From positions 1-55,983 of the forward strand of contig CAMCXP010000001.1 of the NCBI GenBank assembly GCA_945883395.1: a stretch of 55,983 bases of DNA. The letters are read 5' to 3'. Numbering within the stretch: position 1 is the first letter of the stretch; each line of letters begins with the position of its first letter. The DNA is from Melioribacter roseus P3M-2. GTDB taxonomy: Bacteria > Bacteroidota > Ignavibacteria > Kapaibacteriales > Kapaibacteriaceae. Below the pieces are notes generated by a model. The model saw only the letters and a list, made by a program, of their open reading frames with translations, had not been told where the DNA came from and searched no databases. Of this stretch, positions 16,535 through 23,257 are shown one piece after another. The position numbers and the translations under genes are program-made.

Positions 16535-18034
16535 ATGCTCACAGCCTTCGTTCGTTGCGTCGTTCTCGTTATCGTTGCGTGCTTCGCTTGCACGATCACT
16601 TCTGCTGCTGACTCCCTCTCAGCAAAAGCGGCAATCTTCCAGGATCCCGTCACAACATCCCACAGCGTGGTGATCGATGGTCAGCGCATCGATTATCAAG
16701 CAACGGCCGGACACCTGACGATGCTGAAGGAAGATGGTACGCCGCGTGCCAAGGTGTTCTTCATCGCCTACACGCGCTCAGGTGTAAAGGATCCCGCATC
16801 ACGTCCGCTGACGTTTTCATTCAATGGCGGACCCGGCTCGTCGAGCGTGTGGCTGCACTTGGGCGTTCTCGGACCACGTCGCGTGGCAATGAACGACGAC
16901 GGCACAACGCTCCCACCTCCATACAAGCTGGTCGATAACGATCAGTCGTGGCTGGATCTCAGCGATCTCGTGTTTATCGACCCGGTGAGCACAGGCTTCT
17001 CGCGTGCGAGCGACGAAAAAGACGCGAAGCAGTTCCACGGATACAACCAAGACATCGAATCAGTCGGCGAGTTCATTCGTCGATGGACATCCGACAACAA
17101 GCGCTGGGCCTCACCGAAGTATTTGATCGGCGAGTCCTACGGCACAACGCGCGCGAGTGGATTGTCGGAGCATCTTCAGAATCGCTATGGCATGTATCTC
17201 AACGGCGTCATCCTCGTGAGCGCAGTTCTCAATTTCCAGTCGATCGACTTCGCTGACGGCAACGATCTGCCGTTCGCAACATTCTTGCCGACATATGCAG
17301 CGACTGCGTGGTACCACAAGCGTCTCTCACCTGCAATGCAGGCGAAGACGCTCGAGCAACTGGTAACAGAGGCTCGCGAGTTTGCAATCAACGACTATTC
17401 AACAGCACTGATGAAAGGCACGCGTCTTACGTCTGCCGAGCGCGCAGCAATCATCACACGTATTGCGCAGTTCACAGGTCTGCGTGAAGAGTACATCGAC
17501 AAAGCTGAACTTCGTCCGATCATCTTCCGCTTCTGCCAAGAATTGCTCCGTGACAAGGGGCAAGTAATCGGTCGCTTCGACAGTCGTTACACTGGCACGA
17601 TTGCTGATCGCCTCGGCGAGTCGATGGAACGCGATCCATCACATCATCCAACGATCGCTGGATGCTTCTCAACGTGCATCAACGACTACCTCGGCCGTGA
17701 GCTCAACGTCAAAACAACACTCCCCTATGAAGTCCTCACAGGACGCGTCTGGCCATGGGATTACAGCAACGCACAAAACGAGTATCTCAACGTTGCGCCA
17801 AAGCTGCGCAATGCAATGCAGATGAATCCTGATCTGCGTGTATGGGTACTCAACGGCTACTACGATCTCGCTACACCGTTCTACGGCGCCGAGTACACCT
17901 TTGAGCACATGGGCATCCCCCAACCACTCACGAAGAACGTGCAGATGTCGTATTACGCGGCCGGACACATGATGTATCTGCTCAAGACTGAGCTCGTACA
18001 GATGAAGAAGGATGCTCGCGGCTTCTATCGCTGA
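16535..18034 (+). CDS. serine carboxypeptidase, peptidase S10 family, secreted
   Basis: FNGGPGSSSVWLHLG and the GESYGTTRA catalytic Ser context, plus a signal peptide. ATG at 16535, with an alternative TTG at 16511. Confidence 0.85.
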   Translation: MLTAFVRCVVLVIVACFACTITSAADSLSAKAAIFQDPVTTSHSVVIDGQRIDYQATAGHLTMLKEDGTPRAKVFFIAYTRSGVKDPASRPLTFSFNGGPGSSSVWLHLGVLGPRRVAMNDDGTTLPPPYKLVDNDQSWLDLSDLVFIDPVSTGFSRASDEKDAKQFHGYNQDIESVGEFIRRWTSDNKRWASPKYLIGESYGTTRASGLSEHLQNRYGMYLNGVILVSAVLNFQSIDFADGNDLPFATFLPTYAATAWYHKRLSPAMQAKTLEQLVTEAREFAINDYSTALMKGTRLTSAERAAIITRIAQFTGLREEYIDKAELRPIIFRFCQELLRDKGQVIGRFDSRYTGTIADRLGESMERDPSHHPTIAGCFSTCINDYLGRELNVKTTLPYEVLTGRVWPWDYSNAQNEYLNVAPKLRNAMQMNPDLRVWVLNGYYDLATPFYGAEYTFEHMGIPQPLTKNVQMSYYAAGHMMYLLKTELVQMKKDARGFYR

Positions 18035-19110
18035 TCAAGGCGCAGCACACCGCGCGGACACACACTCGAGCAGACACCACAGCCCACACATGATGCGCGG
18101 GTAAACGTCTCGCCGCGCTCTGCGTACTGCTGCACGTCAATACCCATCTCGCAATTCGTGCTGCAGTTGCCACACGAAATGCACTGATCCTTCTGCACCG
18201 TAATGCGGAAGCGCGATGCATACTTCTGAAGAATGCCCAGCACAGCAGCCATCGGACATCCAAAGCGACACCAGATGCGCGATCCAAGGAGTGGGTAGAA
18301 TCCAACGCCAATTACGCCAGAAAACACCGCACCAATTGCAAATCCATACCAGCAATTTGCCACGCTTGCCGCATGCACAATCGACACGTTCGTGCTGTCG
18401 TTTGCCCACCACAGCAATGCTGTGACGACAACGATGCAGACGAGCACCGAATAGATCAGCCATCGCTCAAGTTTCCACGATCGATCGCTCTTGCTACTGA
18501 GATGTCGGAACGGATCCCCCGCTGTCTCGGCTAGCGCACCGCAGCCACATACCCACGAGCAATACCATCGCTTGCCGAAGTAATACGTCAGCACCGGTGT
18601 TGCCACAAACGTGCATAGCAACATCCACCACCCAACGAACACATAGAGTCGGTCTGCATTCGTAAGCAATACATCAATCGATCTCGGAAACAGATACTCA
18701 GGTTTAAGGGGCCAGAAATACGTTAAGTAAAACGCCTGATGTCCCATACGCTCGAAGCTTGCTGGCAGCAGATACGCGAACACGAGCTGCACGATCATCA
18801 GCACGCTCGTGCGATACACATGGTACCGCTCATGTCGGTACTTCACCAGCATACGCACGCCCATAATCAGCACTGCTGCCGTATAGAACGTCCCGTAGAA
18901 GAACCACTGATCGGCGACCGCACCACGGATACGCAGAGCGAGTGGATCGAGCAGTTGGATAAGGGGCGCAAGCGCCTCAGGGAACCAGTAGATGCAGACG
19001 TAGAGTGCAGTGAGCACCAGCGCCAGGGCATATGATGCGATGCCTCGATGGCGTAATGACCACGGCGAGCGCGTTGGCGCATCTGGGAGTGTGATCTGCA
19101 CGAGGTTCAT
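18025..19110 (-). CDS. integral-membrane polyferredoxin, NapH/NosR-like 4Fe-4S binding protein
   Basis: About 6 TM. CX3C(P/G) loop motifs CSWVCGCG and CRFGCP, and two C-terminal ferredoxin motifs CISCGNCSTNC and CVGCGVCSSVCP. ATGA overlap with the upstream reductase. Confidence 0.8.
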   Translation of the reverse strand: MNLVQITLPDAPTRSPWSLRHRGIASYALALVLTALYVCIYWFPEALAPLIQLLDPLALRIRGAVADQWFFYGTFYTAAVLIMGVRMLVKYRHERYHVYRTSVLMIVQLVFAYLLPASFERMGHQAFYLTYFWPLKPEYLFPRSIDVLLTNADRLYVFVGWWMLLCTFVATPVLTYYFGKRWYCSWVCGCGALAETAGDPFRHLSSKSDRSWKLERWLIYSVLVCIVVVTALLWWANDSTNVSIVHAASVANCWYGFAIGAVFSGVIGVGFYPLLGSRIWCRFGCPMAAVLGILQKYASRFRITVQKDQCISCGNCSTNCEMGIDVQQYAERGETFTRASCVGCGVCSSVCPRGVLRLDQR

Positions 19111-20255
19111 AGCGTTACCTTCAGTGTGAACTCAGGATCGACGACGGCATGCGTAAACATGCCACGTGCGTCGTCGGTGGTGCGAGCTTGACGAATCCAT
19201 TCCTCACATACCTCGCGGTTCAGTCGCACACCTACCGTCTGCACACCTACAAGGATGCCATCGATATGGTGCAACCGCACGCTACGCTGATGAACTGGAT
19301 CTTCCCAATACCATGATGACGTTGACGCATCGATCGCACCAACGGAGTACCACTCCTTTCGGAGGAACTTCGCCTGCATCGATGGCAGGCTAGGCACATA
19401 TGCCGACGCCGTGCCGGCAATCACATGTGCTACATGTTCGCCCTGCGCACGTGCATCGTGCCACGTAGCGCGCAAACCCCACGGTGGTTGGGCACAATCG
19501 CCAACGGCGTAGGTGTTCGGTCGTGACGTTCGGAATGACACATCGACTCTGGTCCCCACGTCAGTCGGTATTCCAGCAAGCTGTGCCAATGCAATCGACG
19601 GACGAGCACCCGTGGCCATGATGACATGATCGCATGGAACGATCTCGCCCGAGTGCAATTGCACTCCCACAACACGAGTACCTTCACGCACGATCGATAC
19701 AACGTCTGCATTAAGCGCCATACGAATTCCGTCGTCCTGCATATGTCGCGTGATGAGCTCCGACTCTTCCCGTGGGAGCGCATCAGCGAACACTCCGCCA
19801 TCACGCAGTAGCCACTGATAGTGCGCCGAGCGATGATGCAGAACTTCCGCGACTTCTGCTCCGAGCAGCCCGCCACCGATAACGACACACCGCTTCTTCG
19901 ATACAATCGCATGCTCGAGATGAGCTACATCGCTCCATTGCGTGTAGCACTGGACGTGTGAATCGACCATCGCGCACCAATTTGGCAGCGCCGGTATTGA
20001 GCCAGTTGCGATCACAATGGCGTCGTATCCATCAAGTTCATCAAGGCTGTCGATTGTGCGGTGCTGCGCATCGGGGAGTGCAGCAACAACAGCCGACGCA
20101 TCAACGACACCCATCGACACATACATCAGCGCCGGTCGCGAATAATGAAGCGCTCCCTCATCGGAGAACACGTCGACGTCGCAGCCATACGTCTCCCGAA
20201 GGACACGTGCTGTGGTAGATCCCGCCCTACCATTACCGATGATTGCGATACGCAT
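19107..20255 (-). CDS. NAD(P)/FAD-dependent pyridine nucleotide oxidoreductase (ferredoxin-reductase-like)
   Basis: MRIAIIGNGRAGS and VVIGGGLLGAEVA are two Rossmann motifs, and AVGDCA is the FAD motif. Confidence 0.85.
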   Translation of the reverse strand: MRIAIIGNGRAGSTTARVLRETYGCDVDVFSDEGALHYSRPALMYVSMGVVDASAVVAALPDAQHRTIDSLDELDGYDAIVIATGSIPALPNWCAMVDSHVQCYTQWSDVAHLEHAIVSKKRCVVIGGGLLGAEVAEVLHHRSAHYQWLLRDGGVFADALPREESELITRHMQDDGIRMALNADVVSIVREGTRVVGVQLHSGEIVPCDHVIMATGARPSIALAQLAGIPTDVGTRVDVSFRTSRPNTYAVGDCAQPPWGLRATWHDARAQGEHVAHVIAGTASAYVPSLPSMQAKFLRKEWYSVGAIDASTSSWYWEDPVHQRSVRLHHIDGILVGVQTVGVRLNREVCEEWIRQARTTDDARGMFTHAVVDPEFTLKVTL

Positions 20256-22922: not shown

Positions 22923-22924
22923 CG

Positions 22925-23257
22925 TTACATCGACACGTCGTTAACCTTGTTCATCATCATCACGCCGTGCACCAGCGATGCACCGCCGCGAATGGCTGCC
23001 GCAACATGCACAGCCTCCATCATCATCTGCTCCGTCGCCCCCTTCTGCAGACTATCAGTTGTGTAGGCATCAATGCAGTACGGACATTGTACGGCATGCG
23101 CTACCGCGAGGGCGATGAGCGACTTCTCACGTTGCGTAAGAGCGCCCTCGGCGAATACATCGCCATACCAGGCGAAGAACTTCTCTGCCAGCTGTGGCTG
23201 GAAGTCGGCAATTGTGCCAAACTTGCCGAGATCGGCGGGGTTGTAGTATGAGGCCAT
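22925..23257 (-). CDS. carboxymuconolactone decarboxylase/AhpD-like 'peroxidase-like' protein associated with ArsS-type rSAM
   Basis: About 110 aa with ALAVAHAVQCPYCIDAY (CxxC). It lies 2 nt upstream of arsS. ATG at 23257. The ORF is open to 23305. Confidence 0.75.
   Translation of the reverse strand: MASYYNPADLGKFGTIADFQPQLAEKFFAWYGDVFAEGALTQREKSLIALAVAHAVQCPYCIDAYTTDSLQKGATEQMMMEAVHVAAAIRGGASLVHGVMMMNKVNDVSM

Follow-up and report, generated by a model that had tools for sequence, protein, structure and literature searches.

A seven-gene operon around ArsS

Here, we analysed a stretch of 55,983 nt (positions 1 to 55,983 of contig CAMCXP010000001.1, assembly GCA_945883395.1, Melioribacter roseus P3M-2), referred to below as the window, and we found that it carries an operon of seven minus-strand genes around a radical S-adenosylmethionine (SAM) protein of the ArsS family, which is known from arsenosugar biosynthesis (Table 1). 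The operon runs from 23257 to 18025 according to both the open reading frame (ORF) listing and a direct reading of the junctions. The gene for the CMD-like protein is separated by 2 nt from arsS, and 9 nt lie between the TIGR04282 gene and the reductase gene; the remaining four of the six junctions (arsS to tag, tag to the crtZ-like gene, the crtZ-like gene to the TIGR04282 gene, and reductase to polyferredoxin) are ATGA overlaps of 4 nt. An earlier note on this DNA, made from the sequence alone, had reported seven minus-strand genes with junctions of -4 to +9 nt and four ATGA overlaps, and re-reading the window gave exactly the same layout; the motifs quoted there (AVQCPYC, CNQACKHC, CYGCTAGAGSSCGG, and CIVMCKAPELGKVKTRL) were all found.

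The start sites are supported independently by a public contig with 95% identity (L161; loci are referred to by such numbers), whose called genes have the same lengths to within one residue (110, 351, 189, 150, 196, 382, and 361 aa). The seven-gene order is also found in the independent assemblies L003, L161, L169, L171, and L173, so the operon is not an assembly artefact. Based on crude longest-ORF calls, 8 of the 42 same-strand junctions in the window have 4-nt overlaps. ATGA overlaps are therefore a habit of this genome, and the coupling within the operon is real, not exceptional.

Table 1. Genes of the ArsS operon, in the order of transcription, and the region upstream of it (window coordinates)
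Feature	Position	Strand	Length and remarks
Intergenic region, presumed promoter	23258..23540		283 bp; first operon gene to divergent response-regulator gene
AhpD/CMD-like CxxC protein (TIGR04169)	22925..23257	-	110 aa
ArsS radical SAM/DUF3641 protein (TIGR04167)	21867..22922	-	351 aa
Tag, DNA-3-methyladenine glycosylase I	21301..21870	-	189 aa
CrtZ-type membrane di-iron hydroxylase homologue	20849..21304	-	151 aa
TIGR04282 (DUF2064, CofC/MobA-like) transferase	20265..20852	-	195 aa; ATG at 20852
NAD(P)H/FAD flavoprotein, ferredoxin/rubredoxin-reductase type	19107..20255	-	382 aa
NapH/MauN-like integral-membrane polyferredoxin	18025..19110	-	361 aa

Family membership was judged by the cut-offs of the curated NCBIfam hidden Markov models, together with Pfam. 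Three of the proteins belong to the core families of the ArsS neighbourhood, and the earlier description of the cluster as ArsS-type holds for all of them. The CMD-like protein, which carries the CxxC motif (AVQCPYC), scores 183.8 bits with TIGR04169 (cut-off 120), the family of the arsenosugar biosynthesis-associated peroxidase-like protein, and matches Pfam CMD. ArsS scores 428.5 bits with the TIGR04167 equivalog model (cut-off 300), is aligned over positions 3–303 of its 303, matches Pfam Radical_SAM and DUF3641 (E = 2e-53 for the latter), and is 62–73% identical to proteins that NCBI names ArsS. Its radical SAM motif is C65xxxC69xxC72, its C-terminal tail is the Cys-rich CYGCTAGAGSSCGG, and the Cys motifs, including C335, C338, and C346, are invariant in our ArsS alignment (A1). 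The third core protein scores 187.4 bits with TIGR04282 (cut-off 134) and matches Pfam DUF2064. One ArsS has been characterised, and it transfers the 5'-deoxyadenosyl group of SAM to dimethylarsenite to give 5'-deoxy-5'-dimethylarsinoyl-adenosine; the cycle is redox-neutral and needs only an initial reduction (PMC13598754).

The gene types that the earlier note gave to the other four products (Tag, CrtZ-like hydroxylase, FAD reductase, and NapH-like protein) were right according to model, structure-match, and BLASTP evidence. Tag passes TIGR00624 (241.4 bits, cut-off 232.5) and falls below the narrower E. coli-type equivalog NF007678 (231.6 versus 349). A full-length alignment to the structures 2ofi and 1lmz shows about 55% identity (E = 5e-62), and in the alignment to 2ofi the Cys and His residues that bind zinc and the Y, E, and W residues of the pocket are the same in both proteins. 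In addition, Tag is 63–68% identical to the ordinary Tag proteins of Flavobacterium, Mangrovibacterium, and Acidobacteriota.

Judged by its sequence, the 151-aa protein is a CrtZ-type hydroxylase with four His boxes (H26xxxxH31, H38HxHH42, H94xxxxH99, and H120xxHH124) and hydrophobic segments. It has no Pfam or NCBIfam match, with nothing from PF04116 even at E <= 10, and the family scan, which covered 27 ORFs of the window, included no crt gene. Its homologues P0130–P0134 carry PF04116 and are named beta-carotene 3-hydroxylase by JGI. BLASTP gave 34% identity to the Pantoea CrtZ (E = 6e-29), a reference sequence that needs re-checking, and there is 39% identity to P0135, which is encoded by a gene that overlaps one for a CrtW-like ketolase.

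The last two genes encode a reductase and a membrane polyferredoxin. The reductase matches Pyr_redox_2 (E = 3e-41) and reaches no equivalog cut-off; its nearest structures are rubredoxin, ferredoxin, and putidaredoxin reductases (3fg2, 1xhc, 2v3a, and 3ef6 being the best). Among its Cys residues, only that of the GDCA motif is invariant, there is no redox-active CxxxxC disulfide, and the protein falls into the ferredoxin/rubredoxin-reductase class. The polyferredoxin has about five hydrophobic segments, matches to Pfam Fer4_5 and the Fer4 dicluster, and the motifs CxxxCG at 184, CxxxCP at 281, and CxxCxxCxxxC at 310 and 341. With 65.5 bits for TIGR02163 (cut-off 213) it lies outside the NapH family itself, and the Nap partners NapG and NapAB do not occur in the gene lists of the relatives. 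Its own orthologous group is tight, with 46–63% identity and long invariant motifs (alignment A2).

Gene neighbourhoods of ArsS and of the redox pair

We compared the window with relatives at the same chromosomal locus, whose ArsS is 67–73% identical and which were covered with 10-kb flanks. Their common flanking genes, HAD, 3HCDH, CdsA, and a cation-diffusion-facilitator (CDF) transporter, border one end of the locus, and peptidase S10 and GCS2 border the other. L163 and L001 carry only the CMD-like, ArsS, TIGR04282, reductase, and polyferredoxin genes, and L162 and L164 carry the same core and pair with 3–5 kb of unrelated genes between the TIGR04282 and reductase genes. The crtZ-like gene is added without tag in L004, where the redox pair is present, and in L168, where the contig ends soon after the TIGR04282 gene and the pair is not visible. 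All seven genes are found in the window, L161, L003, L169, L171, and L173, while L170 has tag and the crtZ-like gene and no redox pair, and L172 has tag alone, with no other cluster gene detectable at E <= 1e-3. Overall, tag is present in L002, L003, L161, L169–L171, and L173 and absent from L001, L004, L163, and L168.

Thus the inseparable core is the trio of CMD-like protein, ArsS, and TIGR04282 protein, which is never split among relatives at this locus, and tag, the crtZ-like gene, and the redox pair are each gained or lost independently. This makes the locus an evident hotspot for the gain and loss of genes. Since tag is found without the ArsS genes and they are found without tag, and since the Tag sequence is canonical, tag is a housekeeping gene in its own right, resident in the operon. 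The crtZ-like gene is, from its distribution, a clade-specific insertion, and its substrate would be either a carotenoid ring or a lipid-like intermediate. Its homologues with at least 57% identity and a readable context are all in ArsS operons, and the more distant ones stand alone or are paired with a CrtW-like ketolase.

Two other features were seen among these relatives. In L172 (GCA_016191145.1, Ignavibacteria-like), the syntenic locus at 5152–7798 holds only tag, flanked by small unannotated ORFs. In L164/L165 (11053–12504), L001 (11002–12513), and L162 (11083–12204), the TIGR04282 ORF continues into an extension of 170–300 residues that has a hydrophobic, signal-like start and then, by eye, an outer-membrane beta-barrel-like part, as if the ORF had been fused to an inserted gene or had run into it after loss of the stop codon.

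Scanning GTDB species genomes with the ArsS alignment gave 80 loci, mostly of Bacteroidota; the ORFs of these loci were clustered, the clusters were annotated, and neighbours were counted within about 10 kb of ArsS. The counts are raw, the loci are not phylogenetically independent, and the ORF calls are crude. The CMD-like gene, directly upstream of ArsS, is the most frequent neighbour (72 of 80 loci), followed by TIGR04282 (48), ArsM (NF038099; 27), purine nucleoside phosphorylase (PNP; 26), TIGR04283 (22), a rhodanese (NF045521; 19), DUF547 (18), the reductase (15), an OlsE-like FA_hydroxylase (PF04116; 12), and the polyferredoxin (10), and tag and the crtZ-like gene are each found in 3. The tag, crtZ-like, reductase, and NapH-like genes do occur beside ArsS in other genomes.

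The earlier note had given weight to the missing arsM and to a missing second glycosyltransferase of the GT2 type. The absence itself holds, in that tblastn with all cluster members (E <= 1e-3) found no arsM, PNP, or TIGR04283 gene in the 56-kb window. It carries little weight, since arsM is missing from 27 of the 43 ArsS loci that have 8 kb or more of sequence on each side, and arsM, PNP, and TIGR04283 are missing together from 18 of the 43. The absence of arsM near ArsS is thus the commoner state and cannot alone indicate altered chemistry. A GT2 gene at 47948–48682 was considered as the missing TIGR04283 gene and rejected, as it has no TIGR04283 match and shares only 30% identity with the GT2 found alongside the redox pair at other loci.

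To our knowledge, the first committed step, that of ArsS, is the only demonstrated step of arsenosugar synthesis, and our literature searches on the neighbourhood families, on links to PNP or ferredoxin, and on later pathway steps found nothing on accessory genes. In the 26 genomes, the PNP gene (NF006054, 363 bits) lies near ArsS/TIGR04282 on the same strand, for example at L020, L025, L037, L044, L045, L061–L063, L066, L067, and L073–L077. It is a natural candidate for the removal of adenine from the adenosyl-arsenical, and no curated model labels PNP as a member of the arsenosugar pathway. Tag as a replacement of PNP was rejected, because Tag is canonical and tag and the ArsS genes dissociate both ways at one locus (L163 versus L172).

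The reductase and polyferredoxin genes, which the earlier note had counted among non-canonical passengers, turned out to form a conserved pair, seen repeatedly close to ArsS clusters in several lineages of Bacteroidota. The 4-nt overlap between them is found in most loci with both genes, from the Ignavibacteria-like clade to Flavobacteriaceae, and at least five gene arrangements place the pair beside ArsS (L003; L074/L075; L044/L056/L066/L076; L027; and the metagenome loci L084 and L108). For example, the order in Salegentibacter (L074/L075) is CMD-ArsS-TIGR04282-PNP-pair-GT2-GT2-GT-C-like, in other Flavobacteriaceae the pair comes after TIGR04283 and a divergent GH113 gene, and in Cesiribacter (L027) it lies upstream of ArsS. 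In L092, L095, and L144, TIGR04282, DUF547, and glycosyltransferase-module genes adjoin the pair and ArsS is not visible.

The reverse test started from 80 polyferredoxin-centred metagenome loci, 20 of them with good flanks. The reductase is adjacent in 62 of the 80, DUF547 occurs in 9, TIGR04282 in 8, and the genes of a GT2/GT2/GT-C-like glycosylation module in 8–14 each. The pair is therefore an autonomous cassette of wide occurrence, and its association with the ArsS pathway gene set is loose but recurrent. It is often followed by three glycosylation genes, which encode a GT2 like polyprenyl-phosphate-sugar synthases, a PgaC/CelA-like membrane GT2, and an MptB-like GT-C; this set or DUF547 accompanies the pair in L027, L044, L074, L075, L084, L088, L090, L093, L094, L121, L122, L133, L144, and L157, which suggests that the pair is connected with a pathway for surface glycopolymers or lipid-linked sugars.

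Interpretation of the operon and its alternatives

Taken together, these results probably describe a co-directional, translationally coupled operon of an Ignavibacteria/Kapabacteria-like bacterium (FCB group) that is built around the known ArsS core and carries an accessory redox pair and insertions of tag and the crtZ-like gene. ArsS would adenosylate dimethylarsenite, a chemistry taken from the literature on one characterised homologue. The CxxC protein and the TIGR04282 protein presumably provide redox functions and onward activation or transfer of the sugar, and TIGR04282, being CofC/MobA-like, might act on the sugar moiety after adenine has been removed. The last two proteins would form a two-subunit electron-transfer module, in which electrons pass from NAD(P)H to the FAD flavoprotein and then to the membrane polyferredoxin with its several predicted [4Fe-4S] sites. 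Such a cassette, repeatedly placed beside ArsS/TIGR04282/DUF547/glycosyltransferase gene sets, most likely supplies low-potential electrons to the ArsS pathway and is not dedicated to one enzyme. The electrons might prime the ArsS cluster or restore its activity, keep substrates or partners in the reduced state, or meet a redox need of the wider pathway. Tag would be an ordinary DNA-3-methyladenine glycosylase that is resident at the locus and merely co-transcribed, and the crtZ-like gene, inserted in one sub-clade, may encode the carotenoid hydroxylase of this clade or an enzyme that was recruited for a new, lipid-like substrate. The genes for ArsM, PNP, and TIGR04283 probably lie in another part of the genome or are dispensable.

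Several points weigh against this interpretation. The overlapping stop and start codons of tag and the crtZ-like gene are kept in lineages whose ArsS is only 67–70% identical, which would not be needed for mere hitchhiking. That the substrate contains arsenic is an assumption based on only one characterised homologue, with no arsM in the window by tblastn and no ars-like gene among the 27 family-scanned ORFs, and since ArsS is redox-neutral after priming, a dedicated electron supply is not obviously needed. The pair itself is mostly found without ArsS, which is present in only 3 of the 80 polyferredoxin-centred loci, and in 11 of the 20 well-flanked loci there is neither a gene of the ArsS neighbourhood nor one of the glycosyltransferase module. 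Furthermore, the window reductase lacks about 21 residues (around 49–55; consensus HMxxxxTKPYEDxFWxKNRIEL) that are found in all eight aligned orthologues, and it may be impaired by this gap. The stretch is also absent from the 95%-identical relative, and the L003 reductase has a different deletion of 17 residues.

In an extension of the view of the earlier note, the products of tag, the crtZ-like gene, and the redox pair would be true pathway enzymes and the end product would be unlike classical arsenosugars; Tag would free adenine in the place of PNP, and the di-iron hydroxylase, fed by the redox chain, would hydroxylate the product or its lipid tail. This view draws on the fact that PNP is common near ArsS elsewhere and absent from this clade, where Tag, an adenine glycosylase, directly follows ArsS, as well as on the OlsE-like proteins of the fatty-acid-hydroxylase superfamily in other ArsS clusters, on the close CrtZ-like homologues with a readable context, which are all in ArsS operons, on the ATGA coupling kept in distant relatives, and on a reductase type that matches the AlkT and putidaredoxin-reductase partners of oxygenases. 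However, the idea of alternative steps or a different product is not supported for tag, which is canonical and dissociates from the ArsS genes, is weakened further by the commonness of loci without arsM, and would at most concern the crtZ-like gene and the redox pair. The proposed redox chain also comes apart among relatives, with the crtZ-like gene lacking the pair in L170 and the pair lacking any hydroxylase in L001, L163, L027, L044, L056, and L074/L075; a hydroxylase gene occurs in only 1 of the 80 polyferredoxin-centred loci, and the distant CrtZ-like homologues stand alone or are paired with a CrtW-like ketolase, a pairing that belongs to carotenoid chemistry. We therefore regard the view as unlikely. 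Quite unlikely, in our judgement, is an operon with no arsenic role, in which the trio adenosylates or otherwise processes a different soft nucleophile, for instance a selenium or sulfur species, and the arsenosugar label is over-extended from one cyanobacterial enzyme. The family was originally called "radical SAM/selenodomain" and has selenoprotein members (NCBIfam names; PMC13188914), a rhodanese-family partner is found near ArsS in about a quarter of the loci (19 of 80), and the lack of arsM, both here and in most well-flanked loci, fits as well. Against it, ArsS lies 128 bits above the equivalog cut-off and keeps every invariant Cys, as do the ArsS homologues that stand beside ArsM; nothing in the data indicates another substrate, and arsM could be anywhere in the unsampled part of the genome.

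It is also conceivable that the redox pair is an unrelated housekeeping unit, kept beside the ArsS core by inherited synteny only. The lack of every ArsS-neighbourhood gene at most polyferredoxin-centred loci would agree with this, as would relatives that tolerate insertions of 3–5 kb between TIGR04282 and the pair (L162, L164) or have lost the pair (L170). We hold it to be very unlikely, because the pair is found within 10 kb of ArsS in 10–15 of the 80 loci, in several families and in at least five gene orders, and also beside TIGR04282, TIGR04283, and DUF547 genes without ArsS, whereas by chance a single-copy pair would be expected within 10 kb in approximately 0.5% of 4-Mb genomes (a rough estimate, not computed). 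At the other extreme, it is very unlikely that the operon makes a non-classical organoarsenical, with the redox pair as a membrane-anchored donor of the ArsS pathway, the CrtZ-derived hydroxylase acting on a lipid- or isoprenoid-linked arsenical, and Tag freeing adenine. A weaker part of that proposal, in which the redox pair alone is an unrecognised functional accessory of ArsS/TIGR04282 pathways, is more likely.

The reading of an ArsS core with an accessory redox pair and local insertions is mostly a clarification, namely that the window holds a normal ArsS cluster in a lineage-specific arrangement, with no evidence of new chemistry. It separates the families that always go with ArsS at this locus (TIGR04169 and TIGR04282) from those that are often with ArsS (PNP, ArsM, TIGR04283, rhodanese, DUF547, the OlsE-like hydroxylase, and the reductase/polyferredoxin pair) and from a local hitchhiker, tag. 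The redox pair, PNP, DUF547, and the OlsE-like hydroxylase are candidates for unassigned roles in the pathway.

Surroundings of the operon and comparison with known systems

Between 17500 and 24000, matches to sigma-70-like promoters and to terminators were not above the number in shuffled controls, and Rfam gave no match over the whole window. The sequence upstream of the first operon gene is conserved with the 95%-identical L161 only and with none of the further relatives. In four relatives (L164/L083, L001, L162, and L002), three to six tandem copies of a G-poor unit of 7–8 nt lie within the 25–50 nt directly upstream of the CMD-like start; the units are TCTCGTCA (five copies), CCGTAACT (four), TAACCCCG (three), and CACCTCA (six). 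The window (23258–23300) and L161 have no tandem array, merely scattered CGTAAC-like words. The array could be a leader or translation-initiation element or a slippage-prone spacing.

Beyond this region, a LuxR/GerE-type response regulator and a 181-aa protein without a family match are encoded on the plus strand at 23541–24712 with a mutual overlap of 4 nt. They are divergent from the operon, towards the CDF-transporter side, and among the relatives this insertion is found in the window and L161 only. The CDF transporter itself (25231–26166, minus strand) adjoins CdsA upstream of the operon, has a very His-rich N-terminus (MGGHDHHHGHDHHHHEH), and is conserved in nearly all relatives examined. 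Farther away, at 51267–54753 on the plus strand, there is a row of three genes for a Crp-type regulator, a fusion of a metallo-beta-lactamase fold with a rhodanese (470 aa, persulfide-dioxygenase-like), and a TauE/SafE sulfite exporter, which look like a sulfur-detoxification unit.

The arsenosugar neighbourhood of NCBIfam (TIGR04167, TIGR04169, TIGR04282, TIGR04283, NF038099, and NF045521) is anchored on the characterised cyanobacterial ArsM/ArsS pathway. The window has the three core families above the cut-offs, in the order CMD-ArsS-TIGR04282 that most Bacteroidota loci share. It differs in having no ArsM of NF038099, no TIGR04283, no rhodanese partner, and no PNP, and in adding tag, the crtZ-type gene, and the reductase/polyferredoxin pair, the last of which no curated model names. 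Compared with the Tag of E. coli and Salmonella (1lmz, 2ofi), the window protein can be aligned from end to end, keeps the zinc ligands and base-pocket residues, and passes TIGR00624; the difference is one of location only, the window gene being translationally coupled within an ArsS operon.

The polyferredoxin shares with NapH, MauN, and CcoG (Fer4_5) the several transmembrane segments, the two CxxxC(P/G) motifs, and the two CxxCxxCxxxC motifs. However, its first motif is CSWVCGCG instead of CxxxCP, and its partner is a cytoplasmic flavoprotein instead of NapG/NapAB. A similar comparison can be made with AlkB, rubredoxin, and rubredoxin reductase and with CrtZ and ferredoxin, since the operon likewise has a His-box membrane hydroxylase, an FAD reductase, and an iron-sulfur carrier. 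The carriers of those systems are soluble rubredoxin or ferredoxin, whereas here a NapH-like polyferredoxin that is integral to the membrane takes this part. There is no support for an obligate AlkB-like system of three components (CrtZ-like protein, reductase, and polyferredoxin), as relatives can have the hydroxylase without the redox pair and the pair without the hydroxylase.

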